Shown here piece by piece: positions 45,549 through 62,461 of a stretch of DNA of 64,000 nucleotides. The position numbers and the translations under genes were made by a program. This DNA comes from an uncultured Bdellovibrio sp. (GTDB lineage Bacteria > Bdellovibrionota > Bdellovibrionia > Bdellovibrionales > Bdellovibrionaceae). Numbering within the stretch: position 1 is the first letter of the stretch; the number at the start of each line of letters is the position of its first letter. The DNA is taken from the NCBI GenBank assembly GCA_963932905.1, contig CAWVRN010000014.1:42513-106512 (forward strand), read 5' to 3'. The notes beneath the pieces are model-generated. The model did no database searches. It saw only the letters and a list, made by a program, of their open reading frames with translations, and was not told the origin of the DNA.

Positions 45549-45559
45549 TAGATACGTCC

Positions 45560-46513: not shown

Positions 46514-46575
46514 CGTAAAGTCCTTTTTTAGAATCTAAGTTTAGCTAACAGGAACGCCTGCTAGCTATGTCTTAA

Positions 46576-47571
46576 TTAAAATCTAAGTAGTAAACTGCCT
46601 GATGTTAAGCCGGCACCAAAAGCAGCTAATAGAATGAGCTGACCGCGCTTAATTTTTCCTTCCTGTAAAGCCATATCGAATGCAACTGGAATACTGGCTG
46701 CTGAGGTGTTGCCCGTTTCGTGCAAACTGACCACTACTTTTTCAGTAGGGAACTCAAAGTGACTTGCGACACTTTCTAAAATACGTAAGTTAGCTTGATG
46801 TGGAATCAACCAATCGACTTCCGTCGGAGCTACGTTGTTGGCGCGAAGGGCTTCGTGGCAACATTCAGTCATGGTACGAACGGCATTTTTAAAAATCTCT
46901 CGACCTTTCATGCGTACGTATTGAGTTTTATTGTTTAGGACCTCTTGGCTGAATGGAATTTTGGATCCACCAGCAGGTAGTACGAATAATTCACCTAAAT
47001 TACCGTCCGCGTGGAGGTGCGAACTCATGATAATGTTGGGGTCGTTTTTATCTGTACGTGAAACAATCCATGCGCCAGCGGCATCACCAAATAGGATGCA
47101 TGTTTCGCGATCTTCGTAATTTACAAATGGATGCAGAACTTCACCACCCACAACTAGGATGTGTTTGTACATGCCAGTACGGATGAATTGATCGGCTACT
47201 GATAAACCGTAAACGAAGCCAGAACATGCCGCTGATAAATCAAACGCCATGATGTTTCGGCACCCTAGCTTGCTTTGCAGTACGCAGGCTGTTGACGGCA
47301 TAACTTGGTCAGGGCTTACTGTGCAGACGATGATCAAATCAAGGTCTTGCGCTGATAAGCCGGACATTTTTAATGCTTTGAGGGTCGCTTCGTAAGCCAG
47401 ATCGCTGGTACCGACGCCGTCGGCAGCAATATGGCGGTGTTTGATGCCGGTACGTTCAACGATCCAATCGTTGTTCGTGTCGACCATTTTTTCTAAATCA
47501 AAATTAGTAAGAACTTTTTCAGGAAGGTATGAGCCGACTCCTGATATTTTGGATCTGAACTCTCCAACCAT
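46576..47571 (-). CDS. fabH: 3-oxoacyl-ACP synthase III
   Basis: AACSG, PHQAN, GNTSAAS. Confidence 0.96.
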   Translation of the reverse strand: MVGEFRSKISGVGSYLPEKVLTNFDLEKMVDTNNDWIVERTGIKHRHIAADGVGTSDLAYEATLKALKMSGLSAQDLDLIIVCTVSPDQVMPSTACVLQSKLGCRNIMAFDLSAACSGFVYGLSVADQFIRTGMYKHILVVGGEVLHPFVNYEDRETCILFGDAAGAWIVSRTDKNDPNIIMSSHLHADGNLGELFVLPAGGSKIPFSQEVLNNKTQYVRMKGREIFKNAVRTMTECCHEALRANNVAPTEVDWLIPHQANLRILESVASHFEFPTEKVVVSLHETGNTSAASIPVAFDMALQEGKIKRGQLILLAAFGAGLTSGSLLLRF

Positions 47572-47593
47572 GGAAGCCTCGCTTTAGTTAGGA

Positions 47594-47809
47594 TTACTCA
47601 GCAGTTTCTTCAGCTTGCTTCTTAACTTTAGCAGGGATGATTTCTTTGCCACGGTAATAGAATGCACCGTCTGTTGATTTGTAAGCGCGGTGAGGAGCGT
47701 GGAATTCTCCCATTTTTTTATCAAAACCAATAGCTGGAATCTCTAGAGAATCGTGTGAACGTCTCATGTCGCGGCGTGAGCGTGAGGTTTTTTTCTTCGG
47801 TGTAGGCAT
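47594..47809 (-). CDS. rpmF: 50S ribosomal protein L32 (no Cys ligands)
   Basis: MPTPKKKTSRSRRDMRRSH; position between yceD and fabH. Confidence 0.9.
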   Translation of the reverse strand: MPTPKKKTSRSRRDMRRSHDSLEIPAIGFDKKMGEFHAPHRAYKSTDGAFYYRGKEIIPAKVKKQAEETAE

Positions 47810-47921
47810 GGTAGCTCCTTAAATAACGGATCGTATTATTAAATAATAAAGACGAATTAATTCCTTAATTTCACTCAAAAATCAATCTTTGATATTGTGG
47901 CTTGGTCCGGGTGCGTAAAAC

Positions 47922-48479
47922 TTACTGAATCTTTAAGCCCTTTAATACAGCAAATGGATTTGTTTCTTCCAGTGCCGTTGGCTTTTCTTCATAAGTTTTA
48001 AGCAGACTTTGAACATTTAGCCCACAATCATTGCAGTCACCTTTGGAATTAACCTCGGGAGCTGGATTATAAGGCACCTCGAGAGCAATCGCTTCGTGAA
48101 GGTATTCGCCAATGTTAAGTTTCATTCCGGCCGAGTATTCAAAACTTTGAGGCCCTTCGGTTTGGTTTTCAGAGAAATGATTCGGTTTTGCGTAGTGACC
48201 GTCACGGGTCATTTCTTGCGGTGGAATCAAAATTTCATTGAATTTGACCGTGATTGGGAACTGAATTCCTTGGCCGCAATATGAGCAAAGCTCTTTAGAT
48301 TTTGTTTTTATTGAGCCAGTCAGTGTGAAATCGCGTGTGTTTAATGGGCGAATAGTAAATGTCGTTAGATATTTGTTTTCGCCAATAAGATCAGCCAAAG
48401 CCGCTGTGACTTCGCCGGATTCAGTTGTGTATTCGTAACTACGGCCCTCTTCGGGGATTTCTGCTAGATTGATAATCAT
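47922..48479 (-). CDS. YceD/DUF177 family protein
   Basis: CSYC and CNDC, NPFAVLK C-terminus; upstream of rpmF. Confidence 0.85.
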   Translation of the reverse strand: MIINLAEIPEEGRSYEYTTESGEVTAALADLIGENKYLTTFTIRPLNTRDFTLTGSIKTKSKELCSYCGQGIQFPITVKFNEILIPPQEMTRDGHYAKPNHFSENQTEGPQSFEYSAGMKLNIGEYLHEAIALEVPYNPAPEVNSKGDCNDCGLNVQSLLKTYEEKPTALEETNPFAVLKGLKIQ

Positions 48480-48554
48480 GGTACATGTCCTAAGTTTTCA
48501 TAGCGAAAGGGTCAATGAGTTTTGCCCAGATTCACTAAATTACATATTTTTCTT

Positions 48555-49280
48555 CTAGAAATAAGCGCCTAAAGCTAACTCTCCAAAGAACAGGTTCTTT
48601 ACATCTTCACCCACATTACGTGAGCCAAACTTGTTTGTTAGGTATTGGTTTTCTGGTAAGGAATTGCTTTCTAATCCAAGTTTAGCTTGGAATGAGACGC
48701 CTTTAAGTAAATTTCCATCGATCCAAGGAATAGCGTAACCGATACTGGCGCGAACGATATTGGTGTCGACTGATTTATAATCGCTGCTGGATTCAGCGAG
48801 CTTTTTATCGATACCAAAAAAGGTGTTACCAACAAAGCCGTTATCACGCTCGTAGCGGTCTTGAGAGAGCTCGTATTTACCCCATGAGCGACCTAATTCG
48901 CCATTTATGAACCAACCCTTAGTTTCAATCCCTTCTGTTTTTAGAAAATATTTGGCGCTAAGAAGAATGGCTTTGCCGGAAAATCCGGATGTTGTTTTGT
49001 AGTATTGGCCATTATCTAAATCGCCACCTTCTGAATGGCTAAGCTTGTCTTGGTTGTGGGCAATAACGCCAATAAGAAGGTTTGGCTTTAAAACATAATT
49101 CACGCCGATGCGGTTTCCCACGTTAGTGGCTCCTCCAATAAGTTCGATACGGGATCGGCTCAGTAGATTTGGTTTTGTATTAGATTCAGCCGTATCGTCC
49201 TTGGCATCGTCCATTTGAAGGGCGTGCGAGTTGAATGATAGAGTTAAAACAAAGCCGAAAAGTAAGAATAATGTTTTCAT
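48555..49280 (-). CDS. putative outer-membrane beta-barrel protein
   Basis: Signal peptide, amphipathic strands, C-terminal LGAYF. Confidence 0.7.
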   Translation of the reverse strand: MKTLFLLFGFVLTLSFNSHALQMDDAKDDTAESNTKPNLLSRSRIELIGGATNVGNRIGVNYVLKPNLLIGVIAHNQDKLSHSEGGDLDNGQYYKTTSGFSGKAILLSAKYFLKTEGIETKGWFINGELGRSWGKYELSQDRYERDNGFVGNTFFGIDKKLAESSSDYKSVDTNIVRASIGYAIPWIDGNLLKGVSFQAKLGLESNSLPENQYLTNKFGSRNVGEDVKNLFFGELALGAYF

Positions 49281-49359
49281 GTGCGGCCAATATACCCAAT
49301 TGGCCCCTGGAAATCTAGATGTGTGAGTTTTTTACGTGCTTGATTGGCTTAGCTGCAAA

Positions 49360-50346
49360 TTAGAAGTTAACAAATTGGTTTTCGGGTTTTAGTTTGTTTT
49401 TAACTAGGCCTAAACCTTTAACTTGTTGGATTAGCTCGCTCCAACGACTTTCTGTCATTTTACCTAAACCATCTGTGTTTTGGATCAATGGTATTTGGGC
49501 TTCGGCACTTTTCTTAAAAGTCTCTGGCTTCATTCCTGGATTTAGCTTTGCCATGTAGGCATTGGCTTTCTCTGGATTTTTTAAATAAGATGCCCAGCCG
49601 TTGGTCACCGCTTGATGCAGCTTTTTAACAGTTTCTGGGTGAGCTTTGTTAAAGTCTTTTCTAACTGAAAGTACAGTGGTGTAAGGGTTGAATCCTTCGT
49701 CGGCCACTAGAAATGTCGAAATAGGAATTTTCAAATCATTCGCAGCAATCGGTTCACTGGTGATAAATCCTTGCTGTGACAATTGATTGTCTTTTTGAAA
49801 TTGAGATAGACCGCCTAAATACGGGACCATTTTTACTTTTGCATGCGGGTATTTTTTTAAAAGATACAATGAATACGATAAACCTTTTTGCCATGCTAGA
49901 TAGCCTTCGTTTGTCAGAACGTCGCCAATGCTTTTGAATTTACGCGATTCGTGTGACATAATCATTTGTGGGTTTTTCTGGAAGGCCGCGAAGATTCCGA
50001 CCACGTTGTTTTTTAAATTCTTATCATTAGAGATCAAAATTTCTTCCGCCGAAACGATGGCGAAATCAACGACACCTTTAGTGAGCATTTGCACGGTAGG
50101 TGTGCCTGATCCACCCGGCAGAATTTCAACATTTAACCCTTGTTTTTTAAATTCATCGTCGATCAAGGCTTGGTAGAAGCCGCCGAACTGTGGCTCTGGA
50201 AGCCAATTCAAGGCTAGCTTGTATGTCGTTCCAGTCGACGCATTCTGAGCGTCAGGTGCTTGCGCGTTGGCAAATGTTGCGACAAGTGAAACAGCGGCAC
50301 ATAAAAATAGATAAGAAAATAGCCCGACACGTTTTGTAGAATTCAT
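49360..50346 (-). CDS. ABC transporter substrate-binding protein (NMT1/THI5-SsuA-like)
   Basis: LNWLPEPQFGGFYQA, GLNVEILPGG. Confidence 0.85.
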   Translation of the reverse strand: MNSTKRVGLFSYLFLCAAVSLVATFANAQAPDAQNASTGTTYKLALNWLPEPQFGGFYQALIDDEFKKQGLNVEILPGGSGTPTVQMLTKGVVDFAIVSAEEILISNDKNLKNNVVGIFAAFQKNPQMIMSHESRKFKSIGDVLTNEGYLAWQKGLSYSLYLLKKYPHAKVKMVPYLGGLSQFQKDNQLSQQGFITSEPIAANDLKIPISTFLVADEGFNPYTTVLSVRKDFNKAHPETVKKLHQAVTNGWASYLKNPEKANAYMAKLNPGMKPETFKKSAEAQIPLIQNTDGLGKMTESRWSELIQQVKGLGLVKNKLKPENQFVNF

Positions 50347-50362
50347 CCTGACCTCCGAAAGT

Positions 50363-51106
50363 TTAAAGCTTAAAAGGTCTCCATCGGGTGATCAATAAGT
50401 TTATGATGTTAAGTAACATAATCTGCGAAAGTCCAATCAACGCCAAGCCAATCAACGCAGCAAAAACCAAATCAATGCGCTGTTGAGTGCGGGATGTATC
50501 GATTAACGAGCCCAAACCACCACCGGCAACAAATTCACCGGCAACGACGCCGATCACGGCTAAGCCTGATGAAATGCGAAGTCCTGCATAAATATAATGA
50601 TAAGAGCCCGGGATTTTTAAATACACTAACGTTTGCATGCGTGAGCGTTGATAGACTTTGAATAACTCAAGTAAGTTTTTATTAATTGTATCTAAACCAA
50701 CGAGAGTGTTTGCCAATATTGGAAATATACTGACAAAGACCGCTGATGCGATGATGGTTTGTGAGCCGTAGCCAAGATAAATCACTAACAAAGGCGCAAT
50801 CGCTATAATTGGGACCGTTTGAAAAAAAATCGCAAGTGGAAAGATGGCGCGCTTGATCCAATCGTTCAACGAGAAAATGAGGGCCAACGTAAACCCTAAA
50901 ATAAAACTCAGAAATAAGCTTTGAAAACTAAGCCGAGTCGTATCCCAAAAAGCGGTGAAAAAGGCCTCATTGTTATCTTGGACTGTTTCAAGAATCACTG
51001 AGAGGGGCGGAATCAATTGTGGATCCCACATACCCATTTTATTAAGTACTTCAACCACGATTGTAATTGTAACGACTAAGACAAACGTCGGCAGAAACTG
51101 TTTCAC
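50363..51106 (-). CDS. ABC transporter permease (SsuC/TauC-like)
   Basis: FQTVPIIAIAPL, VIGVVAGEF..GGGLG; multiple TM helices. Confidence 0.9.
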   Translation of the reverse strand: MKQFLPTFVLVVTITIVVEVLNKMGMWDPQLIPPLSVILETVQDNNEAFFTAFWDTTRLSFQSLFLSFILGFTLALIFSLNDWIKRAIFPLAIFFQTVPIIAIAPLLVIYLGYGSQTIIASAVFVSIFPILANTLVGLDTINKNLLELFKVYQRSRMQTLVYLKIPGSYHYIYAGLRISSGLAVIGVVAGEFVAGGGLGSLIDTSRTQQRIDLVFAALIGLALIGLSQIMLLNIINLLITRWRPFKL

Positions 51107-51825
51107 GCGCGACCTCGCAAGCCGTCTGATATATCGGTTACGAGTTTAAAATATTCGGATGACTGGCGATATTCGCGGGGATTTAGATCTTTCTTGTTCA
51201 GATCGAGTTCTTTAAATTCATGCTGGTTACCTTGAGGAAACAGCCATAACTTCTGAGAAAGAAAAACACTTTCGTTCACCGAATGAGTTACAAAGAACAC
51301 TGTCATTTTGTGTAGTTTCCAGTAGTCCAGCAATTCTTCCTGTAGCTCAAATCGAATAAAGTCATCCAGAGCTGCAAAGGGTTCGTCCATGAAAAGAATA
51401 GATTTATTGTTAATCAATGCCCGCGCGATGGATACGCGCATTTTCATACCACCAGACAGTTGGTGTGGGAACAATTGAGCCGCGTCTTTTAATTTTACTG
51501 TTTTTAAAATGTTATGAATTTGATCTTGTTTTTCAGATGCATTCATAGTTTTTAATGAAATGCCGATTGCGACATTTTCGTAAACTGTCAGCCACGGCAG
51601 CAGGCAGGATTCCTGAAATACGAAGCCAGGATTCGCGTTGGCGGGCTGGGTAAGGCTACCTTCGCTAAGAGTATCTAGTTCGGCAAGAATGCGAAGTAGA
51701 GTTGATTTTCCGCAGCCTGACGGGCCCAGGATAGAAATGAAATCACCAGTTTGCGTTTGAAGATTTAAGTTTTTAAACAACCAGCGTGAATCAAATTTTT
51801 TACCCGCGTTTTTTAGTTGTAGCAT
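51103..51825 (-). CDS. ABC transporter ATP-binding protein (SsuB/TauB-like)
   Basis: GPSGCGKST, LSGGMKMR, MDEPFAALD. Confidence 0.93.
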   Translation of the reverse strand: MLQLKNAGKKFDSRWLFKNLNLQTQTGDFISILGPSGCGKSTLLRILAELDTLSEGSLTQPANANPGFVFQESCLLPWLTVYENVAIGISLKTMNASEKQDQIHNILKTVKLKDAAQLFPHQLSGGMKMRVSIARALINNKSILFMDEPFAALDDFIRFELQEELLDYWKLHKMTVFFVTHSVNESVFLSQKLWLFPQGNQHEFKELDLNKKDLNPREYRQSSEYFKLVTDISDGLRGRA

Positions 51826-52440
51826 TTAAGCCCAGTCATAGTTGAAGCTGATACTGATCCGTAAATCATCAGAGTTATTTTGTACGACTTCGTGGCGAAG
51901 CCAGCTTTCGAACAGAACAACTTCGCCTTCTTTGGGAACATAGTTGAAAAAGTTCAAATTTTTAATAGGTACATTTTTCTTTTTAGGTGGCGTAGCCATC
52001 ATCTGCGTAAAACGAGGGTCTTCAAATTTTAATGCGGGTATATTTTTTTTGGGTAAACTGACATAGACCGTTCCGGATATAACGCTAAGCGGGTGAATAT
52101 GTCCAGTGTGTATCGTTCCTCGTGGCATCACATTCGCCCACATTTTTGAAAGGCGCAATTCTGATGGCGAAATATCCCATCCTAATTCTTTGACGTAGGT
52201 CGCGATATTTTTGTCGATTTTTTTCTTAAGGTCGCCAAACGAGGATGAAAACAAATGTAGCTGATCCATCGAACCATAGGATGTATAGCCAAATAAATAG
52301 TTTTTCTCTGACCACTCTTGGCCGTCCTGGTCGATTTCCGAGATTTTTAAGATGTCTTTCTTAAGATCCTTAAGTAGGTGGCTTCTAGCCGGCGAAACTG
52401 GTGCGGTTAGGATTTGAGTTGGAAAAAGCGTCTGAATCAT
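51826..52440 (-). CDS. putative 2OG-Fe(II) oxygenase (TIGR02466-like)
   Basis: WANV, HIH, SGTVYV, FESWLRHEV, RISISFN. Confidence 0.85.
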   Translation of the reverse strand: MIQTLFPTQILTAPVSPARSHLLKDLKKDILKISEIDQDGQEWSEKNYLFGYTSYGSMDQLHLFSSSFGDLKKKIDKNIATYVKELGWDISPSELRLSKMWANVMPRGTIHTGHIHPLSVISGTVYVSLPKKNIPALKFEDPRFTQMMATPPKKKNVPIKNLNFFNYVPKEGEVVLFESWLRHEVVQNNSDDLRISISFNYDWA

Positions 52441-52609: not shown

Positions 52610-52957
52610 ATGAAAGCTTTAATCTTAACTCTAATCTTAAGTACGAGTGTTTTTGCAAAAGTGGCAGACTTTAACTCGCTGATTAGCGAAGACACTAAAG
52701 CTCAAAAAGAGTTGCACACGAAACTTAAATCGCAAGTGTACACTCAAAATGAATTGGATGCGCGTAAGAATTTAGTAAGAACTAAAAAGGTCGAGAAAGA
52801 ATCAACAGTAGTGTTCTATGATGAAGCGCAAACGGAAATCGCGGCACCATCTAACGATAAATTCTTCCGCTATAAAAAAGAAACTAAACAAAAAACAACT
52901 AACCCACGTAAAAACCAACACCGCGTAGCTAAAGAATTGCGCGAGTTAGGTTTATAA
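52610..52957 (+). CDS. small secreted basic hypothetical protein
   Basis: AAGGAG RBS before ATG 52610; signal peptide MKALILTLILSTSVFA. Confidence 0.75.
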   Translation: MKALILTLILSTSVFAKVADFNSLISEDTKAQKELHTKLKSQVYTQNELDARKNLVRTKKVEKESTVVFYDEAQTEIAAPSNDKFFRYKKETKQKTTNPRKNQHRVAKELRELGL

Positions 52958-52978
52958 GAATAACTAAAAAACTAAACC

Positions 52979-53010
52979 AAAAAGGCACCCCTTAAAAGGT
53001 GCCTTTTTTT
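52979..53010. terminator. bidirectional intrinsic terminator
   Basis: AAAAAGGCACC-N8-GGTGCCTTTTT between convergent genes. Confidence 0.85.
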
Positions 53011-53109
53011 ATTTTTTGATCTAGTGGGTTTTCTCTACGCCGGCAGGGATATCAGCGGAGGTATTGTGTGGGCTGCTTGTTTGTATATAAAATGTAATTT
53101 AAACTTCTA

Positions 53110-53631
53110 TCACAGAATGAGTTTTCGAAGCTCGTCCTGTGTATAGACATAGTCAGCGTAAATCATAGTGTTCGTGATATTGCGATGACCTAAAGCCACC
53201 TGAACCAGGCGAAGGTCTTTTGTCTTTCGATAAAGCTGTATTGCAAATGTGTGACGAAGTGAGTGAAATTTCTTAGGTACTGGTCGATACAAATCCCAAA
53301 TCTGATAAAGTCGATCATAAGTAATATCGAAAACCTTCTGCGTCTCTACGGATTCAGCATAACGTTGAAGTTTAAAAAATAATCCATTTTGAATGGGGAT
53401 TTCTCGATCATTACTACCTTTCAGGCCGCGAATGAAAACCGACATGTCGTACGCATTTAAATCTGATTTTTGGATATTGAGTATTTCTTGAGCACGAGCT
53501 CCTGTTTTTAAACCAAGCAACAAAATCAAACAGTTGCGAATGTCTTTATCAATATATGTATCTATTATCGACGTAAGCCTGTCGACCTCTGGAGCTAAGA
53601 GATACTTATTTTTGTTTAACTGATAGCGCAA
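53110..53631 (-). CDS. tyrosine recombinase, catalytic domain only (173 aa)
   Basis: TGARAQE (R), GLKG (K), HSLRH (HxxR), LGH, TMIY (Y) all present. Confidence 0.9.
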   Translation of the reverse strand: MRYQLNKNKYLLAPEVDRLTSIIDTYIDKDIRNCLILLLGLKTGARAQEILNIQKSDLNAYDMSVFIRGLKGSNDREIPIQNGLFFKLQRYAESVETQKVFDITYDRLYQIWDLYRPVPKKFHSLRHTFAIQLYRKTKDLRLVQVALGHRNITNTMIYADYVYTQDELRKLIL

Positions 53632-53949
53632 AAAACCACCTAAAAATCCGTCTCAAAAAATAGCGAAAAACAACCAAAAATCAGGTGTGTTTTGGCACCT
53701 TAATTCGTTGTTAAGTACTAAGGATTATTCAAAAAAAGCCGATTGTAAACAGAGGAAATGAATTAATTTTTGAGTCTGAAAAATATGAACTTTAAAAACG
53801 GCACATAATAATTAATTCAACATTCGCGCGAGTGAGAATTTGTTTGTAACGATAAATTCAAGGAAACAATAAAATCAGAATTTCAAATTCAAAGTTAGGG
53901 AAAAAACGAGACCACTCTGAAAAATACGATGTAATTACAAACACATAAT

Positions 53950-53977
53950 ACTAAAGCTTATAACTAAAAGCTTTAGT
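53950..53977. repeat. 10-8-10 palindrome, candidate recombinase or regulator site
   Basis: ACTAAAGCTT-ATAACTAA-AAGCTTTAGT. Confidence 0.55.
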
Positions 53978-54229
53978 TAAATTTGAAAATGGGCATACAA
54001 ACACCCTCATAAACAGCAAACTCATGCAGCTCTAGGGTTTTGTGGTCATCGAAATAACTCAATGATGTGAAAAACAACGCGTAATAATGTGAAATACTAA
54101 TAATAAATTGCAAAATACAACATCGACCTCAATGGCAAAAAGTCGTGGTTGAGTTAAAATCGATAAAATATAGGCATTAAATCGGGGCGGCGTTTGACAG
54201 GGTTCTAATAGCCACGTTACTAATTAATA

Positions 54230-54775
54230 GTGATGGATATGATCAATGACTCTGGAAAATCATCAATTAAGGCAGGAAATCGAACGATTTCTGCTGTTCG
54301 TTTAAATTACGAGGCTCAGGTTAAGGTTATCAAAGATCAGATCGGTGATTTAGAGCATGTCCGTTCAGTCCTTGGGTTATCGCAACGAAAAATGGCGCAA
54401 TTATTATTGGTCGATCCATCATCATGGTCCCGTTGGACTCAAAAAGGCGATGACGTTCCTCCACATATTTATCGTGCGCTTCAGTGGTATATGATTCTTC
54501 AGGAAAAAATCCCAGGTTTGAATTCATCTTATTTTCTGCAGAAAGATGTTTCGTCTTTGAAAAAGGACATTGAAGCGACACTCACCAAGCGAATGGATGA
54601 ACTAGTTTATAATTCGGCTTCGGAAAATGATCGTTTCGAAGGGGAAATCCTAGATCTTAAGCAGAAATTAAAAGACGCTGAAGATGCTCACAGCCTGCTT
54701 TTTAAGCGGCTCAAACGTTTGTATTTGGTCATTTTTTTGGCCTGCCTTGCATCAACTCTCGTATTTATACTCTAA
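54230..54775 (+). CDS. XRE-like HTH protein with coiled coil and C-terminal TM anchor
   Basis: RSVLGLSQRKMAQLLLVDPSSWSRW HTH; heptad region; hydrophobic tail LYLVIFLACLASTLVFIL. Confidence 0.75.
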   Translation: MMDMINDSGKSSIKAGNRTISAVRLNYEAQVKVIKDQIGDLEHVRSVLGLSQRKMAQLLLVDPSSWSRWTQKGDDVPPHIYRALQWYMILQEKIPGLNSSYFLQKDVSSLKKDIEATLTKRMDELVYNSASENDRFEGEILDLKQKLKDAEDAHSLLFKRLKRLYLVIFLACLASTLVFIL

Positions 54776-54830
54776 TTCGTCCATAGTCGTCTCAACTAGA
54801 CTAAATAGTCGATTTTTTTGAGGGGGATTC

Positions 54831-55949
54831 ATGGCTACATTTGAAGTCATTGCGAAAACGGGAAATCACGAACAAGTAGTATTTTGTCATGATCCAGACG
54901 TGGGTTTAAAGGCAATCATCGCTTTGCATAACACGACGCTTGGACCGGCCTTAGGTGGCACGCGTATGTGGAATTATGCCAACGAAGATGAGGCTTTAAC
55001 AGATGTGCTTCGTTTGTCAAAAGGTATGACTTATAAAGCCGCCGCTGCAGGCTTGAATTTAGGTGGTGGTAAAGCCGTTATCATCGGCGATTCAAAAACT
55101 CAAAAAACAGAAGGTTTGTTCCGTGCTTTCGGGCAATTCGTTAATTCATTAAATGGTAAATACATCACGGCGGAGGATGTGGGTACCAGTGAACAAGATA
55201 TGGAATACATTTATATGGAAACGCCTTGGGTAACTGGGATCTCTAAAGATTTCGGTGGTTCAGGTGATCCATCTCCATACACAGCTCATGGTGTGTTGAT
55301 GGGGATTAAAGCGTCTGTTCATGAAAAATTTGGCAATGATAGTTTAAAAGGTCTTCGTGTTGCTGTTCAGGGTTTAGGTAATGTGGGTTTCAATCTAGTT
55401 AAATACCTAGATCAAGAAGGTGCCAAGATCATCGTTTCTGATATCGATGCTGATAAAATTAAGAAAATCAAAGATATGTACCCAGGTGCAACGACGGTAG
55501 CGCCAACTGAAATTTTATCAGTTGAGTGTGACGTTTTAGCTCCGTGTGCAATGGGTGCCATTGTGAATGAAAAAACAATCGCTTCATTTAAAACTCCGAT
55601 CATCTGCGGCGGCGCGAACAATCAGCTTCTTGAGCTACGTCACGGTAATGCTTTAGAAGAAATGGGTATTCTGTATGCGCCAGACTACATCGTAAATGCG
55701 GGTGGTTTGATGAACGTATTTGTTGAATTGGAAGGCTATTCTCAAAGCCGCGCATTTGATAAAACAAAACGTGTTTATGATAATTTAAAACAGGTTTATA
55801 AAATTGCAAAACGCGATAAAATCCCTACTTATTTAGCGGCGGATCGCTTGGCTGAAGAGCGTATCAAAATGGTGACTAAGCTTAAACAAAAACATCCAGG
55901 TAAATCGAATCGTTCATTCACTACATTGCGCGAAATCAATAATCGCTAA
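54831..55949 (+). CDS. Glu/Leu/Phe/Val dehydrogenase (leucine dehydrogenase-like)
   Basis: LGPALGGTR, MTYK, GGGK, AEDVGT, GLGNVG, GGANNQ. Confidence 0.93.
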   Translation: MATFEVIAKTGNHEQVVFCHDPDVGLKAIIALHNTTLGPALGGTRMWNYANEDEALTDVLRLSKGMTYKAAAAGLNLGGGKAVIIGDSKTQKTEGLFRAFGQFVNSLNGKYITAEDVGTSEQDMEYIYMETPWVTGISKDFGGSGDPSPYTAHGVLMGIKASVHEKFGNDSLKGLRVAVQGLGNVGFNLVKYLDQEGAKIIVSDIDADKIKKIKDMYPGATTVAPTEILSVECDVLAPCAMGAIVNEKTIASFKTPIICGGANNQLLELRHGNALEEMGILYAPDYIVNAGGLMNVFVELEGYSQSRAFDKTKRVYDNLKQVYKIAKRDKIPTYLAADRLAEERIKMVTKLKQKHPGKSNRSFTTLREINNR

Positions 55950-56125
55950 TAATTATCTAGCTCAATGCACTCTCGCTTGCTTAATGTAAGCGAGAGTTAC
56001 CAAATTGCTTAATATTTGGCCGCAAATGACCGAATATAATCGCTTTTCTAAAAGAAGCGTTAAGTGTTGACTCAAGCCCCAAGTCCTGTTGATCATTGTA
56101 AGGTCGAATTACCAAGGAGAAACAA

Positions 56126-57070
56126 TTGGATAACGTTACGCCTAACAATGAAAACAATGGAACTAAACGCGCGGGCCATGGAACATCTGGTTTCGGAATA
56201 TCAGATCGCGAATTAGCCAAACAAGACGGCTTTCAACAAAAGTTAACATTAGCATTTGATTGGATCGTTGCGAATAAAGTCATCGTTATCTTATTAGTTG
56301 GTGTGGTGGCGTTTTCGAGTCTGGGTTATGTTATTTACGGCCAAGTTAAACGTGGCGCTCAAATGAAAATCCAAGATCAATACTACGTAATTGAAAAAGA
56401 CTATCTAAAAATCAAAACTGATTTTGACGATGCTGAAAGACAAGCTCAGCAAGAAGCGGCCAAAGCCGCTGATAAAAATAAAAAAGATAAAAAAGACACA
56501 GAACCTAAACCGGAACCTAAAAAGCAAGCTTCCGGTGATTTAGATAAAGACTATGGTGCTGTAGTGGCGCGTTTCACAGAACTGCATTCGGCTAATCCTA
56601 AATTGGTTCCAGGTAAAGTGACGGCGTTAGTTTTAGCCGATATTTACTGGGAATATAAAAAACTAGATCTTGCGGCGCAAGTGTTAGAAAAATCTTTAGA
56701 ATCATCACCTAAAACATTAGTTGATTACATGATTTTGAAAAAATGGTCTGCGACGCAATTGTCATTAGGACAATTTGATCAGGTGATCAAAAAGAACCAA
56801 TCCGTTATGGGTTCAAACAAATACCCATTCATGAATTCGTACTTCAAATTGCAAACGGGTCTGGCTTACGAAGGTTTGAAACAATATGATCAAGCCGAAG
56901 CTCAATATAAAGATGTGATTGCTAAAGGCGATACACCTGAAATGAAAATACCGGCGGATGAAGAAAAAATGAAAAATCATTTTGGTGCGGATCAATCGGC
57001 GGCTGAACAAGCTCAGAAATATCTACTGTTGCTTCGTATGAAGAAAAACGCGGATCAAGCGGGGACTTAA
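56126..57070 (+). CDS. membrane-anchored TPR protein (YfgM-like)
   Basis: Single TM, TPR-like helices; upstream of a BamB-like gene. Confidence 0.7.
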   Translation: MDNVTPNNENNGTKRAGHGTSGFGISDRELAKQDGFQQKLTLAFDWIVANKVIVILLVGVVAFSSLGYVIYGQVKRGAQMKIQDQYYVIEKDYLKIKTDFDDAERQAQQEAAKAADKNKKDKKDTEPKPEPKKQASGDLDKDYGAVVARFTELHSANPKLVPGKVTALVLADIYWEYKKLDLAAQVLEKSLESSPKTLVDYMILKKWSATQLSLGQFDQVIKKNQSVMGSNKYPFMNSYFKLQTGLAYEGLKQYDQAEAQYKDVIAKGDTPEMKIPADEEKMKNHFGADQSAAEQAQKYLLLLRMKKNADQAGT

Positions 57071-58221
57071 TGTATCAAGCAAAAACGACTGGACTAGTTG
57101 TCGCCTTGGCGTTAGCGCTAAGTTCGTGTACTAGCTTAAATGCTCCTAAAGGAAATCCAGTTCGCGCTGAAGTTGGATTTGTTCGCTCAACCGTCGATGC
57201 GCCGATCACTCGTTATCGCAAAATCAATCGTGCTAAAGTGATCTATACCGATAAATTATTGATTGCCAGTAATGCGCATGATGGTCTTGTGGCCTATGAC
57301 ATTCAGTCAGGAAATCGTAAATGGAGTTATGCTGTTCCTAACGGGGTTGAAAAAGAACCTGCGGTATTTAATAATCGCCTGTATTTTGGCGGCAATGACG
57401 GATTTTTCTATAGTATCAATGTAGATTCAGGCCAAGAAGTTTGGAAGACTCATATTAAATCTGAAATCGTAGCAACTCCCGCGTACGATGCACAAGAGGG
57501 CCGCGTTTATTTTGTCACGACATCAAATTCTATCTTGGCATTGGAAGCCGAGAGTGGGCGTCAGGTTTGGTCTTACACGCGCCAGGATCCGTCTAGCTAT
57601 TCTATTCGCGGCGGCACAACGCCAGTGATTCATAAGAATTTAATATACGTTGGATTTAGTGAAGGGTCGTTTGTGGCGTTTAACAAATCCAACGGAACGA
57701 TCAACTGGGAAATTCAGTTGAATAAAAATAAACGTTTTAAGGACATCGACGCGAGCGCGGTTGTTGAGGGCGATAAAATTTATGTTTCTGGTTATGATGA
57801 TAAACTTTACGCTTTATCTACATCTAACGGAGATATCGTTAATAAATTCGAAGCGGGTGGGTATGTTCCCGTCACGGTCGACGGATCAACTCTTTACTAC
57901 CCGTCATCTAACGGGAAAGTGTACGCACTAAACAAGGATTCTTTGAAAGTAATCTGGGAATACGAAGTGCCGAACGGCTTACCAACAGAGATATCTCTGT
58001 TTAATGGCAACGTTGTATTTGGTGAATCATTAGGTGATTTAATATTGTTAGATAAGAAAACGGGGAGTCTGTCGGCCCGGTTTGAGCCGGGGCGAGGCAT
58101 TCAAAGTCCAATTTCTGTAAACGAGAAGCGTTCTGAAGTTTATTTTATTTCTGGTGAAGCTAATCTGTATAGTATGGGAGTCACATGGAAGCCAAAAAAT
58201 TTATTTTCGTTTGTGGAGTAA
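57070..58221 (+). CDS. PQQ-repeat beta-propeller lipoprotein (BamB-like)
   Basis: Lipobox LSSC; repeated A.D..SG...W blades. Confidence 0.85.
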   Translation: MYQAKTTGLVVALALALSSCTSLNAPKGNPVRAEVGFVRSTVDAPITRYRKINRAKVIYTDKLLIASNAHDGLVAYDIQSGNRKWSYAVPNGVEKEPAVFNNRLYFGGNDGFFYSINVDSGQEVWKTHIKSEIVATPAYDAQEGRVYFVTTSNSILALEAESGRQVWSYTRQDPSSYSIRGGTTPVIHKNLIYVGFSEGSFVAFNKSNGTINWEIQLNKNKRFKDIDASAVVEGDKIYVSGYDDKLYALSTSNGDIVNKFEAGGYVPVTVDGSTLYYPSSNGKVYALNKDSLKVIWEYEVPNGLPTEISLFNGNVVFGESLGDLILLDKKTGSLSARFEPGRGIQSPISVNEKRSEVYFISGEANLYSMGVTWKPKNLFSFVE

Positions 58222-58583
58222 TCGTCGCATTAGCGGGCTGTTCAACGGGTAATTGTCGTTCTAAGCAAATTCAAGCTGAACAGGCTGGTCCAGAGGTTCA
58301 GCCCAAAGAAAACAAGCTATTGCCAGACCCTACTATAACGGAACGAGCCCGTGTGTTTAAACCGAATGGCTCCCTTCAATGTGGTCAGGGTAAAAGCATC
58401 GAGCCAGTCACCATGGCGAAAGAGTTAAAAGATATTCAAGTTTATAGGTCATTTGTTGAAAATGACGGTAAAATGCGAATTCAAATGTGTGGGGCTCCGA
58501 CGGGAAATGTAAATGTATTTGAAATCGATAAAACTAACCTAGAGCGCGCGCTGGGCTTTGGTTTTACAGAATGGATCCGGTAA
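58185..58583 (+). CDS. small Cys-containing lipoprotein
   Basis: Lipobox LAGC; GSLQCG and QMCGAPTG. Confidence 0.75.
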   Translation: MEAKKFIFVCGVIVALAGCSTGNCRSKQIQAEQAGPEVQPKENKLLPDPTITERARVFKPNGSLQCGQGKSIEPVTMAKELKDIQVYRSFVENDGKMRIQMCGAPTGNVNVFEIDKTNLERALGFGFTEWIR

Positions 58584-58615
58584 TTAACTTTAACTTTTAA
58601 CGAAGAGGAATCAAT

Positions 58616-59077
58616 ATGATGAGTTTTTTAACTAAGTCAGTTTTAGTATTAAGTTTCTTGGCATCGGCAGCCTTTGCCAATTCAGCTACCGCAGTGGGAA
58701 CTTGGAAAACAATTGATGATGAAACAGGAAATGTAAAATCACTGGTTGAAATCACAGAGGCTGATGGTCAATTAACGGGTAAAGTCGTTAAGTTATTCCG
58801 TAAACCTGAAGAAGATCAGGATCCAAAATGCGATAAATGTTCTGGCGATAAAAAAGATAAACCCATCATGGGTCTTCAAATCCTGTGGGGTTTGAAAAAA
58901 GACGGTGATAATAAATGGTCGGGTGGCGAGATCATGGATCCTAAAAAAGGAAAAACGTACTCTTGCAAAATGGAATTGAGTGAAGACGGCAAGAAATTAA
59001 AAGTACGTGGCTTTCTAGGAATCTCTTTGTTAGGTCGTACGCAAACTTGGGAACGCCAAGAAGAAATCGCTAATTAG
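58616..59077 (+). CDS. DUF2147 family secreted protein
   Basis: GTWKTIDD, CDKC, GEIMDPKKGKTY, LKVRGFLG, GRTQTW. Confidence 0.9.
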   Translation: MMSFLTKSVLVLSFLASAAFANSATAVGTWKTIDDETGNVKSLVEITEADGQLTGKVVKLFRKPEEDQDPKCDKCSGDKKDKPIMGLQILWGLKKDGDNKWSGGEIMDPKKGKTYSCKMELSEDGKKLKVRGFLGISLLGRTQTWERQEEIAN

Positions 59078-59091
59078 TATTATTCTAAAAA

Positions 59092-59131
59092 CCCAGCGAG
59101 AGATCGATTCTGTGATCGATCCCTCGCTGGG
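59092..59131. terminator. long hairpin between convergent genes
   Basis: CCCAGCGAG-AGATCGAT...ATCGATCC-CTCGCTGGG. Confidence 0.7.
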
Positions 59132-59162
59132 GAATATTTGAGAACGATGGTAACTGAGGCAC

Positions 59163-59660
59163 CTAGCCTGGGATCGTCTTATAGAATTCAGTGAAAATCG
59201 TCGCCAAGAGCCAGATAGTTGATACAGCAAGTATCACAAATAACGAAAATACCCCAATCAACGTGAGTGCTAAAACAATTCCAGATGTCTTTTTGGTAAG
59301 ATGTGGATTGGCAAAATAGTTATCCATGAGTTGAATATTTTTCGTATTGGATTTCCACATAAAATCAAATAGCAAACCGAGCCCAGGTATCTTGTCCAAG
59401 ATATTGTCGATCACTACATTTAAAGCCATATGAAGAATTACAATAGGAGGGCATCCTAAAATAGCCGCGCGAAATAAAATATAAAACGACACTGCGTCTG
59501 TAATGATATTCCCGATTCCAGGAATTAGTCCTAGGATTCCGTCCCAGCCAAAACGCCACCCATTTGGTAGTTTGAATTTAGTATCTAGTAATTCTGCAAG
59601 GTAGCGAATGTCATTCATAGGATCCTTTTGTGAGCTGGTGTAAGAGTGAAGGGTAACCAT
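59163..59660 (-). CDS. DUF4112 family membrane protein
   Basis: LLDTKF...RFGWDGILGLIPGIG...FDFMWKSN. Confidence 0.85.
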   Translation of the reverse strand: MVTLHSYTSSQKDPMNDIRYLAELLDTKFKLPNGWRFGWDGILGLIPGIGNIITDAVSFYILFRAAILGCPPIVILHMALNVVIDNILDKIPGLGLLFDFMWKSNTKNIQLMDNYFANPHLTKKTSGIVLALTLIGVFSLFVILAVSTIWLLATIFTEFYKTIPG

Positions 59661-59766
59661 AAAATTTAATTATGTTCATTTCGTTTTCCGTTAGTAGCTG
59701 GGGGTATCTTTACATATAATTTGAATCTGTCTGTGGTTAACTTTATGCATTCCAAATTTTTTTTCA

Positions 59767-61848
59767 TTGTTATGTGAATTTTGCGATGCTCAAATGTTCA
59801 GAATGCTTAAGAGTAATTTGAGAACTGTCCTAAGTTTACTTCTCTTTTTTGTTTGTAGTTTTCCAGTCTTAGCGGCTGAATCGGTTAAAGCTCCTCATGT
59901 AAATATATCTTGGTTGGCGCCGGAAAAGTTAAGTCGCACATCTGCGGATGTTATCGGTATTAAATTTAAAATAGATCCTGAGTGGCATATTTACTGGAAA
60001 AACTCTGGCGATTCGGGTGCGCCTCCTAAGTTTAATTTTAAAAATGGAAATTACAACGTAGGTCCGGCACAGTGGCCTATTCCTAAACGAATTCCCGTCG
60101 GACATCTAGTGAATTTAGGCTACGAGGGTGAAGCAGCTTTTTTATTTCAAATAGCAGTTACTGATAATAGCGACAAAATAGATCTGTCTTTAAATTTAGA
60201 ATGGCTAGTGTGCAAAGAGGAATGTATTCCGGGTATTACAGAGATAAGTTTATCTCGTCCTTTAGTTGAAGGTGATAGTGTTTGGTCGACAGAAATAAAA
60301 AAGCAACGCGATAGTTTTGCGTCCCGAGTGCCCAGATCTGATGATGCTCCTTGGGAAATAAAGCTAGTTGAGAAAACGGAAGAAAAATTAGTGGTCGCCG
60401 TTAAAGTTAAAACTGGCGCTGCACCGAATTTGTTCCCGATAGATGGGGATTTTGTAAATCCACAATCGCCGACTGTTGAAAAAGTGGGTGATGAAAGTCG
60501 TTATACATTTGTTCTGCCGTCTGGGCGGGGGTCACCTTCTAAATTGAGTTTTCTAGGGGTTCGTGGTGGTGATTCTTGGGAGCAAGATATTCAATTAGCA
60601 GTCGAGGCAAGCTCGACGGCCACAACAAGTGTCGATAATTCAGCCGATCAAGCCAGCTTAGTCAGTCTATTGTTCTTTGCGGTTATTGGCGGGATTATTT
60701 TAAACCTGATGCCATGTGTGCTGCCAGTTCTGTCGATTAAATTTCTATCAATGCTTAAAACATCGGAAGGACGTCGCAAACGTGAATCACTTCTGTATCT
60801 TACCGGCATTTTAACTACATTTTTTGTTTTGGGTGCCGTTTTTCTTGGTCTGCGATCTGCCGGCGCAGCCATTGGCTGGGGATTTCAACTGCAATCGCCC
60901 TACATAATATTATTGTTAATTTTATTGTTTTGGTTGATGGCGCTTAATTTCTTGGGTGTTTTTGAATTTGGTGAATCAATTATGAACGTTGCAGGCAACA
61001 CCAATAGTACGGGTTCATTTTCAACTGGAGTCCTAGCAGTGTTTGTAGCCGCGCCATGTACAGGGCCATTTATGGGAACAGCATTAGGCGCAGCGGCCAC
61101 ATTGCCAGAAGTTCCTGCGTTAGGAATATTTTTAAGTCTTGGGTTGGGTCTGGGATTTCCGTTTGTATTGGTTTCATTTATTCCATCGTTTTATAGATTA
61201 ATGCCAAAACCAGGTGCTTGGATGGATCGATTAAAACAATTTCTAGCATTCCCATTAATTGGAACCGTGATTTGGTTGATGTGGGTGCTAGGATTTCAAT
61301 TAGGTTCAGACGGGTGGTTGTTGTCATGCACCCTACTCTTGTTAATTGCCCTGTCGTTTTGGCTAGGAAAAACACGCAGTAGAGTAGTGAAGGCGATGGC
61401 CGTCGTACTGGCATTAGTTGCTATTGGCGCCGGTTTTGCGGCGGTTGCGAAAGCGCAAAAGGCGACCATGCAAAACGTATCTACGTCTGTAGCACCGGCT
61501 AAGATTGGCGGTTGGGTCAAGTATGATCGCGAACTGATTGATCAAGCTCGTGCCAATGGCCAACCTGTGTTCGTCGACTTCACAGCAGCTTGGTGTATTA
61601 CCTGCCAGGTAAATAAAAAAGCGGTGCTAGAAACCGAAGCCGCACAAAAAATATTTCAGAGCAACAATGTATTGATCATGCGGGCTGACTGGACCAATCA
61701 AGATCCTGTAATCACAAAAGCACTTGCTGAATTTAAAAGAAATTCAGTTCCTGTTTATTTGTTTTATAATAAAGGCGCCGAGGCGCAAATATTACCACAA
61801 ATTTTAACGATTGCGATGATCGAAAATTTATTTAACAAAAAGGAGTAA
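59767..61848 (+). CDS. dsbD: DsbD-family thiol:disulfide interchange protein
   Basis: WHIYWKN, CKEEC, LMPCVLP, APCTGP, WCITC; start uncertain. Confidence 0.9.
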   Translation: MLCEFCDAQMFRMLKSNLRTVLSLLLFFVCSFPVLAAESVKAPHVNISWLAPEKLSRTSADVIGIKFKIDPEWHIYWKNSGDSGAPPKFNFKNGNYNVGPAQWPIPKRIPVGHLVNLGYEGEAAFLFQIAVTDNSDKIDLSLNLEWLVCKEECIPGITEISLSRPLVEGDSVWSTEIKKQRDSFASRVPRSDDAPWEIKLVEKTEEKLVVAVKVKTGAAPNLFPIDGDFVNPQSPTVEKVGDESRYTFVLPSGRGSPSKLSFLGVRGGDSWEQDIQLAVEASSTATTSVDNSADQASLVSLLFFAVIGGIILNLMPCVLPVLSIKFLSMLKTSEGRRKRESLLYLTGILTTFFVLGAVFLGLRSAGAAIGWGFQLQSPYIILLLILLFWLMALNFLGVFEFGESIMNVAGNTNSTGSFSTGVLAVFVAAPCTGPFMGTALGAAATLPEVPALGIFLSLGLGLGFPFVLVSFIPSFYRLMPKPGAWMDRLKQFLAFPLIGTVIWLMWVLGFQLGSDGWLLSCTLLLLIALSFWLGKTRSRVVKAMAVVLALVAIGAGFAAVAKAQKATMQNVSTSVAPAKIGGWVKYDRELIDQARANGQPVFVDFTAAWCITCQVNKKAVLETEAAQKIFQSNNVLIMRADWTNQDPVITKALAEFKRNSVPVYLFYNKGAEAQILPQILTIAMIENLFNKKE

Positions 61849-61852
61849 GAAA

Positions 61853-62452
61853 ATGAAAGTATTGGTATTTTTATCTTTATTCGTAGCCGGTAGTATGGCG
61901 ATGGCTGAAGCCGTTCCGGGAAAACCTGCGCCGGCATTTGAAACAGCGGCGGCTGATGGCAAAACTCATAAGCTCAGCGACTACGCGGGTAAATGGATTG
62001 TAATGGAATGGTACAACAAAGACTGTCCTTATGTGAAAAAGCATTACGGTTCAAACAACATGCAAGAACTTCAAAAAACATACACTAACAAAGGCGTTGT
62101 TTGGTTGTCTGTAAACTCATCTGCTAAAGGTAAAGAAGGATATACGGATGCCGCGGAAGCGATGAAAGTAGCTAAAGATGCAAAATCAAGCGCAACGGCC
62201 GTGTTGTTAGATCCAACTGGAGTTGTTGGTAAAGCTTATGGCGCGAAAACAACGCCTCATATGTTCGTTGTCGATCCTAAAGGTATCGTCGTGTACGCTG
62301 GTGCTATTGATGATAACAATTCATCTGATCCGGGTGTTATTTTTAAATCTAAAAACTATGTTACGACAGCGTTGGATGCAGCAATGGCTGGCAAAAAGGT
62401 AGAAACGGCCTCTACTAAACCTTATGGTTGTGGCACTAAGTACGCTAACTAG
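61853..62452 (+). CDS. periplasmic redoxin/thioredoxin-like protein
   Basis: EWYNKDCPYV, AKTTP, PYGC. Confidence 0.85.
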   Translation: MKVLVFLSLFVAGSMAMAEAVPGKPAPAFETAAADGKTHKLSDYAGKWIVMEWYNKDCPYVKKHYGSNNMQELQKTYTNKGVVWLSVNSSAKGKEGYTDAAEAMKVAKDAKSSATAVLLDPTGVVGKAYGAKTTPHMFVVDPKGIVVYAGAIDDNNSSDPGVIFKSKNYVTTALDAAMAGKKVETASTKPYGCGTKYAN

Positions 62453-62461
62453 TTAATGATT

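Follow-up and report, generated by a model that had tools for sequence, protein, structure and literature searches.

Can a tyrosine recombinase that consists of little more than its catalytic domain act on a chromosomal site of its own, and which site would this be? The question is raised by a two-gene locus of an uncultured Bdellovibrio sp., which we analyzed within a stretch of 64,000 nucleotides of contig CAWVRN010000014.1 (hereafter the window; positions are counted from its first letter). One of the genes encodes a short tyrosine recombinase (REC), and the other, transcribed divergently, encodes a protein with a helix-turn-helix (HTH) domain and a C-terminal transmembrane anchor (HTH-TM). 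In a preliminary description, made from the sequence alone, the locus had been proposed to be an undescribed module for DNA rearrangement or chromosome anchoring. Here we describe a 28-bp palindrome in the spacer between the two genes, which is very probably a recombination site; that it is the recombination site of REC itself we hold with slightly more belief than doubt. The palindrome and its connection to phages were absent from the preliminary description. The main components of the locus are as follows.

53110..53631, minus strand: REC, a 173-aa tyrosine recombinase, catalytic domain only
53934..53949, no strand assigned: conserved left flank of the palindrome, family consensus aATCAAnnnnTTA, similar to the consensus of integration host factor (IHF)
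53950..53977, no strand assigned: the palindrome ACTAAAGCTTATAACTAAAAGCTTTAGT, 28 bp, proposed core recombination site, readable as 11-6-11 like dif
53978..53993, no strand assigned: conserved right flank, family consensus ..TTTGAAAAAGGG
54230..54775, plus strand: HTH-TM, with an XRE-type HTH domain, one long helix and a C-terminal membrane anchor (tail-anchored)

REC Is a Tyrosine Recombinase Reduced to Its Catalytic Domain

The REC frame opens with TTG, which is preceded by a Shine-Dalgarno-like motif (AGGTGG) just 5' of it and by an in-frame stop seven codons 5' of the start. In relatives the same position is occupied by ATG, GTG or TTG and the following RYxLNKNKYLL is near-invariant, which argues that the start is real. 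The Pfam catalytic-domain profile PF00589 matched REC with an E-value of 4.7e-22 (79 bits, above the cut-off of 27.1). Since this match begins at residue 11 and spans profile positions 3–167 of 172, i.e., nearly the whole protein, there is no room for a core-binding domain. No variation was seen in 42 aligned sequences at the six catalytic residues (R46, K71, H123, R126, H149, and Y158), which align with those of XerA and XerD. The AlphaFold2 model of REC, with a predicted local distance difference test (pLDDT) value of 91.8, gave Foldseek matches at probability 1.00 to XerA, XerH, Cre and the integrases of HP1, P2 and lambda, those to XerA and XerH (5hxy, 5jk0) being at the top. Compared with the isolated catalytic domains of the HP1 (1aih_B) and P2 (5c6k_A) integrases, the model had template modeling scores of 0.70–0.72, normalized to target length. 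REC is a catalytic domain and nothing further.

REC was then compared with family models. The best matches were to single-recombinase Xer proteins such as XerA (NCBIfam, E 1.2e-24; PDB 4a8e, E 1.5e-15), REC reaching 87 bits in the NCBIfam model against a cut-off of 220, and it stayed under all other Xer cut-offs as well, including those of XerC and XerD (TIGR02224 and TIGR02225; 68.5 and 63.4 bits against 329.6 and 335). Scores were likewise below the cut-offs for the FimB/FimE invertase profiles PRK09870 and PRK09871 (40.3 and 39.8 bits against 222 and 221) and for two integron integrase models (51.5 bits against 265 and 40.1 against 435). PHROG integrase families also matched REC. With its 173 aa, REC lacks the two-domain organization of core-binding and catalytic domains, which takes about 300 aa; the XerD- and XerC-like proteins of the same genome, encoded elsewhere, are 308 and 315 aa long.

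The small size is not a recent loss. Truncation of a full integrase is ruled out by the upstream stop codon, by the shortness of REC open frames throughout the order (174–263 aa from stop to stop) and by the lack of a close full-length relative: among the 23 matches of at least 304 aa, the best had 30–34% identity over most of the query. No defence family was assigned by PADLOC to REC, to the HTH protein or to the small neighbouring gene.

It should be mentioned that the same genome (G000) carries a second short tyrosine recombinase (210 aa), located near the gene of a 113-aa XRE-type HTH protein on contig C15 (52390–54607); this pair is another module of the genome built on a recombinase of nearly catalytic-domain size. 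On contig C4 (164786–172462) two recombinase fragments (open frames of 160–163 aa) were found amid repeated C-terminal cassettes with TNLYGYVLQDPVN motifs, a region that looks like a polymorphic-toxin or RHS-type cassette array.

The Two Genes Form a Conserved Module of the Bdellovibrionales

The distribution of the pair was studied in a first set of 41 genomes (G000 and 40 relatives from 13 families of one order) and in an order-level set of 301 genomes, with thresholds of E <= 1e-40 for REC and E <= 1e-12 for the HTH family. In the first set, REC was found as a strong match (E <= 1.6e-53, 54–95% identity) in 36 genomes and the HTH gene in 35, and the five genomes that lacked REC also lacked the HTH gene. 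At the order level, REC was present in 193 genomes, once in each, and the HTH family in 205. The two genes showed the same pattern among genera: both were absent from genera g3 (0/26) and g7 (0/5) and present in 37 of the 38 genomes of genus g9. By counts read from two tables, about 15 genomes contained only the HTH gene and about three only REC, many of them being incomplete assemblies. Among 164 genomes of the phylum from outside the order, none contained REC at E <= 1e-25. By name, the family comes from Bdellovibrio, Bdellovibrionaceae and Pseudobdellovibrionaceae, and a laboratory strain of B. bacteriovorus is among the carriers of the module.

The arrangement of the genes is conserved as well. 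Both were located on one contig in 32 genomes, 25 of which have them divergent with less than 1 kb between; in six others they are separated by 3–10 kb, and in G012 REC is inverted, resulting in a tandem order. The pair is kept together even where its outer flanks differ (L041, L047–L050). Identity to the proteins of the window was similar for REC and XerD (76 and 72% in G017, 72 and 69% in G010, 64 and 61% in G029, 71 and 62% in G031, 54 and 58% in G034), and judging from these values purifying selection on REC appears to be as strong as on XerD. We regard the pair as a chromosomal module that is passed on vertically within the order Bdellovibrionales, and not as a recent pseudogene or a mobile element in transit.

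These results bear out much of the preliminary description, which had seen here a recombinase with the full catalytic set and no core-binding domain, facing a gene for an HTH, a coiled coil and a C-terminal transmembrane segment across an AT-rich spacer of about 600 bp, and had inferred a domesticated two-gene system.

The Spacer Contains a Single Conserved Palindrome

The spacer between the genes (53632–54229) is 598 bp long, with a GC content of 0.29–0.34 vs. about 0.41 in the flanks. In an alignment of spacers from members of the genus, ACTAAAGCTTATAACTAAAAGCTTTAGT stood out as one constant island amid drifting surroundings. It is single-copy in the 4.55-Mb genome, where the next-best matches have 7 mismatches, and a position weight matrix (PWM) built from 68 aligned sites found it as the only match in the window (score 73.3; next best -11.2). 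The palindrome was revealed in 24 of 27 loci of the first set, with a 25th (L033) coming from a later scan, and in 67 of 80 loci of a second set taken from public genomes, some genomes being common to both sets. The other 13 loci of the second set were dropped owing to a cut at a contig end, no site detected, tandem order (L096) or a wrong automatic pick (L080).

The consensus of the site consists of the left flank aATCAAnnnnTTA, the core rYACT-NNNNN-(C)TTATA-AC-TATAA(G)-N'N'N'N'N'-AGTc and the right flank TTTGAAAAAGGG. The two central nucleotides of the 68 sites are AC in 55, GC in seven, GT in five and AT in one. Distance and orientation relative to the HTH gene are preserved, the palindrome being located about 110–430 bp upstream of it. 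The left flank was compared with the IHF consensus WATCAANNNNTTR: at one register 31 of the 68 sites had at most one mismatch, and at seven other registers none of the 68 did.

Several variants of the site were also observed. In family f2 (L034, L235, L237, L239–L242) the site has the left flank, the centre and a GTGTGA-type right arm, and 1.6–5.4 kb of cargo lies between REC and the site. In L035:9644–9703 (G034) the arms read TGTTTCAC ... GTGAAACA and are separated by a 12-bp centre; these we take to be the two halves of the ParB parS consensus, probably by chance. A small open reading frame (ORF) following the palindrome was rejected as a gene, its start codon and frame not being conserved.

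The presence of one site bears directly on the suggestion of the preliminary description that the locus serves phase variation, and on a Fim-like invertible promoter switch in the spacer as a possible mechanism. FimB and FimE, at about 200 aa or less, resemble REC in having a catalytic domain and no separate core-binding domain; the REC alignment to the invertase profile PRK09870 starts at position 7 of 200 (E 3.6e-10), and the AT-rich spacer has divergent genes on its two sides. IHF and Lrp are required for Fim recombination, and an IHF-like flank adjoins the palindrome. However, REC scored only about 40 bits where the invertase cut-offs are 221–222, and instead of a pair of inverted repeats around an invertible segment its module has one palindromic site, kept at one chromosomal place across the order. 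The inverted-repeat pairs that the spacer does contain (I22, I25 and others) are not conserved among members of the genus, the centre has one orientation relative to the HTH gene in 55 of 68 sites (AC; GT in five), and no inversion joint was found in four metagenome runs, checked as contigs only. We therefore regard a promoter switch as very improbable, and the phase-variation proposal was not upheld.

The same groundwater metagenome contigs, short and of low depth, contained joints 53616>53950 and 53882>53950 and loose ends at 53977, the short sides being 26–28 nt. We rejected these joints as rearrangements: their short sides have the length of the palindrome, and they are read as coming from relatives whose spacers differ in length. 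Exactly at the palindrome borders, contigs of related strains join or diverge; in the groundwater populations sampled, the palindrome is hence much better conserved than the sequence around it. Contig breaks between REC and the HTH gene were seen in several assemblies: one contig of G003 (L052) ends inside the palindrome, the HTH contig of the same case (G003/L023) ends about 230 bp upstream of the HTH start, the REC contig of G002 begins 856 bp before REC, and the two genes lie on separate contigs also in G028 and G037. These breaks are read not as biology, but as assembler artefacts caused by a perfect palindrome in short-read assembly.

The Arms of the Palindrome Change Together

The middle parts of the arms vary, with both sides changing together. 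Of the pair cells, 79.5% are complementary vs. 22–46% with the partner arm slid, and double changes occur at four arm positions in 16, 21, 6 and 6 sequences. The covariation score was 0.174 vs. 0.080 in shuffles, and none of 500 shuffles reached it, all these figures being inflated by relatedness. Such symmetric changes could result from co-evolution of REC with its DNA, from selection for pairing, or from quasi-palindrome template-switch mutation, a mechanism that yields paired arm changes.

REC might act in a structure-specific way on folded DNA, recognizing a single-strand hairpin or an extruded cruciform formed by the palindrome. Folded substrates of this kind have precedents in integron attC sites, CTX-phage attP and the inverted-repeat oriT sites of the tyrosine-recombinase-like relaxases MpsA and TcpM. 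Even between close relatives with near-identical REC, four or five arm positions change on both sides (AAAGC/GCTTT vs. ATAGC/GCTAT in genus g9). A parallel is MpsA of SGI1, which, in the account given of it in PMC6414798, is a catalytic tyrosine-recombinase protein without its own N-terminal DNA-binding domain, adjoins an inverted-repeat-rich oriT, and has the N-terminal-like domain as a separate protein, MpsB. The partners differ, however: MpsB is a SAM-like core-binding domain, whereas the partner of REC is an XRE-type HTH protein with a membrane anchor, and no MpsB-like SAM-domain partner was seen. Furthermore, MpsA serves conjugative transfer, and conjugation genes were not found near the REC/HTH locus. 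Mismatches between the arms had no strand bias of the G-T type (GT 12, TG 7, AC 20, CA 3), and ordinary double-strand recombination explains equally well the junctions described in the next section. We consider action of REC on folded DNA improbable.

A Phage-Like Element Is Integrated in the Palindrome

In one genome of the first set (G010), REC and the HTH gene are 9.7 kb apart and separated by a phage-like insert of 9.4 kb. On its REC side (attL), the left flank, the left arm and TTATAAC are located about 45–85 bp from the REC start (the distance varies with the start codon assumed) and are followed by unrelated sequence. On the other side (attR), 9.4 kb beyond attL and upstream of the HTH gene, there is a complete site. 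In agreement with this, the PWM detected two left halves (scores 32.2 and 36.1) and one right half (33.8), the latter at the second place only. Both junctions share the core CACTTATAACTA, and the uninterrupted site of another genome (L120) equals the left part of attL joined to the right part of attR. The conserved left flank is also present in the element-derived half of attR, the phage attP sharing 32 nt of flank and arm with the host site. Among the genes of the insert are those for terminase-like and endolysin/transglycosylase-like proteins and one for an integrase of at most 215 aa, 43–47% identical to REC, which lies about 350 bp past attL and is transcribed away from REC.

To judge from the sequences, this layout bears the mark of a tyrosine recombinase that has integrated the element by a crossover in the centre of the palindrome. 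Because the element sits exactly in the palindrome, leaving a half site and a whole site, the palindrome is very probably a recombination site.

Relatives of REC occur in other phages as well. We found REC-like integrases with 38–53% identity on 14 viral contigs of IMG/VR, with open frames of 170–195 aa in 13 of them and 256 aa in one. Integrases of the catalytic domain alone thus appear to be working phage enzymes. Nothing convincing resembling the host att site was found beside the integrases of these 14 contigs, nor was an HTH homologue found beside them. A second prophage-like region (L232, G021:C27:27000–46000) contains a 214-aa REC-like integrase with no CTTATAAC core nearby, which indicates that short integrases of the REC family use other sites too.

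In its junctions, its short phage-borne relatives and its PHROG matches, the system is similar to the integrase/attB-attP modules of phages. It differs from them in that the host REC lies outside mobile elements between syntenic flanks, is single-copy and vertically inherited with XerD-like conservation, and has neither an arm-binding nor a core-binding domain.

The HTH Protein and a Putative Regulatory Part of the Spacer

The HTH-TM ORF occupies 54230–54775 on the plus strand; the ATG at 54233 is favoured by relatives and gives a protein of 180 aa. Matches to XRE-type HTH profiles were weak (E about 0.01, under the Pfam cut-offs). Among 51 members of the family, 37 matched HTH_31 and 47 an MqsA-type HTH, all Pfam and NCBIfam matches being under the cut-off; the recognition region of the HTH is near-invariant across the family. 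The AlphaFold2 model (pLDDT 89.6) consists of a five-helix domain (helices 21–89) followed by a single helix of about 80 residues (98–179). Foldseek found XRE proteins only weakly (E >= 0.057), and the whole model had no match at E <= 0.001. A hydrophobic C-terminal 19-mer is present in most complete homologues; at eight loci (L071, L100, L105, L107, L108, L113, L115, L119) the HTH protein has no hydrophobic anchor and ends instead in a long lysine/arginine-rich tail. The preliminary description had proposed that the HTH protein might supply DNA specificity or tether the site to the membrane. Co-folding of REC with HTH residues 12–110, both given as alignments, scored 0.00 in two uncontrolled runs, a value that counts neither way.

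Between the palindrome and the HTH gene we revealed two further features.

54061..54122, no strand assigned: three TGTGAAAnnACA-type operator-like repeats, about 21 bp apart, proposed as HTH operators
54194..54223, plus strand: promoter-like TTGACA-18 nt-TACTAA, directly before the HTH start

The repeats correspond to the direct repeat D8 and form three conserved blocks of the TGT-N6-ACA type in 33 aligned spacers; small palindromes of the operator-like type occur in distant relatives as well. The promoter-like sequence is conserved in four of five aligned members of the genus and was absent from the output of a simple promoter scan. From its position, the HTH mRNA would be nearly leaderless.

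Do these features mean that the palindrome, too, is mainly regulatory, i.e., a hairpin formed in a transcript or an operator bound by the HTH protein or by a different factor? In that case REC would have a domesticated role other than recombination or be a decaying relic, and the phage of G010 would simply have picked a conserved attB. In favour of this reading, the site keeps its distance and orientation to the HTH gene and stays with that gene upon insertion, a terminator scan flags its hairpin on the minus strand, and its arms co-vary like an RNA or DNA stem. On the other hand, a non-catalytic role would not need the invariance that all six catalytic residues of REC show throughout the order. 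The repeats beside the HTH promoter are a different motif, and the recognition region of the HTH is near-invariant while the arm middles vary. The stem is AT-rich without a T-run and has no Rfam match, and the phage attP shares with the host site 32 nt of flank and arm, that is, more than the bare core. We consider a purely regulatory palindrome unlikely, though the most probable of the rival readings.

The Locus Is Situated in the Terminus Region

To find out where in the chromosome the module is located, we compared its position with that of dnaA. In seven of eight genomes from two families the distance was 49–52% of the replicon: 50.3% in G017, 50.7% in G029 and 50.5% in G010 and, using rounded genome sizes, about 49.5% in G351, 50.9% in G355, 50.2% in G309 and 52% in G279; G353, at about 32%, was the exception. 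Among 12 complete Bdellovibrio records, REC is at 48.7–50.3% of the record length in nine. The cumulative GC skew of G017 has its maximum at about 1.862 Mb, next to a dif site at 1,864,618 that is 12.3 kb from REC and has one mismatch to the predicted dif of B. bacteriovorus HD100 (dif prediction given in PMC2731167). A classical dif was located 11.3–15.9 kb from REC in all five complete genomes of genus g9 (G017 and four others). In the genome of the window, contig C14 has a positive GC skew over its whole length and stops 10 kb past the locus; the only dif-like sequence, CTATCCGATAAGTTACATTATGTTACTA, is on contig C25 (70808–70835), about 100 bp from the contig end. The two contig ends may be neighbours in the genome, a layout that fits a terminus position without proving it.

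The palindrome is not itself the XerCD dif, which is present at 11–16 kb in relatives and at the end of C25 in this genome and has a different sequence. It is conceivable, however, that REC and the palindrome form a second, Xer-independent terminus system, resolving dimers or unlinking sister chromosomes, in which HTH-TM positions or licenses the reaction at the membrane or septum, as septum-anchored FtsK licenses XerD, and phages merely exploit the site. Besides the position, this reading draws on the single-copy site, which can be read as 11-6-11 in the manner of dif (architecture as set out in PMC9226527), on XerD-like conservation, and on the similarity to the single-recombinase systems XerA/dif, XerH/difH and XerS/difSL. 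These systems provide the best sequence and structure matches to the catalytic domain of REC, and in them, as here, the recombinase gene is adjacent to a single, largely palindromic site in the terminus region. REC differs from them in the absence of the N-terminal domain common to all Xer proteins and in scoring under every Xer cut-off.

A further parallel is XafT (VC1465), the Xer activation factor of the TLC satellite phage, in which an XRE-type HTH is likewise tied to an Xer-like recombination site near dif. The VC1465/XafT family was weakly matched by 17 of 51 members of the HTH family (best E 8.4e-6). In contrast to HTH-TM, XafT has no membrane anchor, and HTH-TM itself reached 16 bits against a cut-off of 70, at profile positions 4–53 of 111 only; the similarity probably covers the HTH part. 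DUF3653 is not among the Pfam families listed for HTH-TM or its family members, whereas XerD activation by XafT is credited to this domain in PMC6744903.

Other observations speak against a second terminus system. XerC- and XerD-like genes and a classical dif are separately present, and XerCD and dif are described for B. bacteriovorus in PMC11318664. Whole genera (g3 and g7) do without the module, the position of the locus may only mirror conserved synteny with neighbours such as the dehydrogenase gene, it is not at the terminus in G353, and nothing gives directionality to the reaction. A role in chromosome resolution, which the preliminary description had raised, therefore gains positional support only, and we consider it rather unlikely. 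Slightly less likely still is its specific form, an FtsK-independent system for sister chromosomes at the terminus, in a bacterium whose filament contains many chromosomes, in which a bare catalytic recombinase acts on a dif-like palindrome and is licensed at the membrane by the XRE protein tethering the locus via the triple operator, phages again exploiting the site. In a bolder variant of it, REC would recognize the palindrome as an extruded cruciform.

Surroundings of the Locus

The neighbours of the pair encode an ABC transporter, a 2OG-Fe oxygenase, a Leu/Phe/Val dehydrogenase, and tetratricopeptide repeat (TPR) and other repeat proteins, i.e., ordinary metabolic and envelope genes. No tRNA gene was found in the whole window. 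With syntenic housekeeping flanks, no tRNA, a single site and a single copy, REC is not situated inside a mobile element, in line with the preliminary description, which had noted neighbours of a non-mobile kind and no tRNA, phage or conjugation genes. On the other side of REC there is one additional feature.

52979..53008, no strand assigned: terminator-like bidirectional hairpin between the 3' ends of REC and an upstream gene for a small secreted protein, detected as inverted repeat I24 and by a terminator scan

Rfam gave nothing near gathering scores in 52900–54900. The locus coincides with a strand switch: all long ORFs at 40563–52440 are on the minus strand and nearly all at 54230–63966 on the plus strand, with positive GC skew on both sides. 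An origin of replication, suggested by the divergent gene strands, was rejected, as contig C1 carries dnaA and, in relatives, the locus lies opposite to this gene on the chromosome.

A Model of the Module and Its Significance

We propose that REC is an active tyrosine recombinase reduced to the catalytic domain, with an architecture like that of FimB/FimE and an Xer-like catalytic domain. Its predicted substrate is the single spacer palindrome of 28–30 bp, composed of two inverted 11-bp arms and a 6-bp centre; a pair of REC monomers would occupy the arms, with their cuts flanking the conserved centre (TTATAAC / TAACTA). To the left of the arms, the conserved flank may be an accessory bending site of the IHF type, compensating for the missing DNA-binding domain. 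The tail-anchored XRE protein would be the regulator of the module, probably repressing its own promoter via the three operator-like repeats, and this autorepression would set expression across the divergent region. As the recombination partner we envisage another copy of the core, carried by a circular element or by the sister chromosome. We infer that the host REC, and not only the integrase of the element, acts on the palindrome. The leading guess on the benefit for the host is control of integrative elements that use the palindrome, i.e., their capture, curing or exclusion, because the only natural event seen is the integration of a phage-like element.

A number of observations weigh against this model. 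There is only one clean case of attL and attR (G010), and the integrase carried by the element would suffice to account for the integration there. Another 15 loci have REC and the HTH gene 1.6–84 kb apart (five of the first set and ten further), and scanning them with the PWM detected no second half site; the cargo of these enlarged loci is mixed (secreted proteins, kinases, lipoproteins), the inserted genes in relatives being oriented in both ways and lacking repeated sites. As the chromosome offers only one site, there is no intramolecular partner for REC. No read-level junction in the material at hand, which comprised low-depth metagenome contigs only, points to action of the host REC. The co-variation of the arms could stem from template switching at a quasi-palindrome instead of selection, and in family f2 the left arm is no longer complementary to the right one. 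The left flank in the window itself has three mismatches to the IHF consensus. Finally, inserted DNA leaves the palindrome with the HTH gene and not with REC, so that an operator role is possible.

In the literature searched, which comprised papers open without subscription, there was no description of this module of the Bdellovibrionales. The tyrosine recombinases surveyed in PMC8138268 are presented there as a core-binding and a catalytic domain, with or without an arm-binding domain. The REC family dispenses with the DNA-binding half and is yet conserved like XerD across an order, besides being used by phages. REC thus offers a natural system for testing how a catalytic domain on its own may find its site and achieve synapsis. 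According to PMC11318664, the handling of the terminus during multiple fission is an open question in Bdellovibrio; the module supplies, in the terminus region of these bacteria, a defined and unique 28-bp site, a recombinase and a predicted membrane-tethered DNA-binding protein. Genetic tools for Bdellovibrio may possibly also make use of the palindrome as a natural landing pad.

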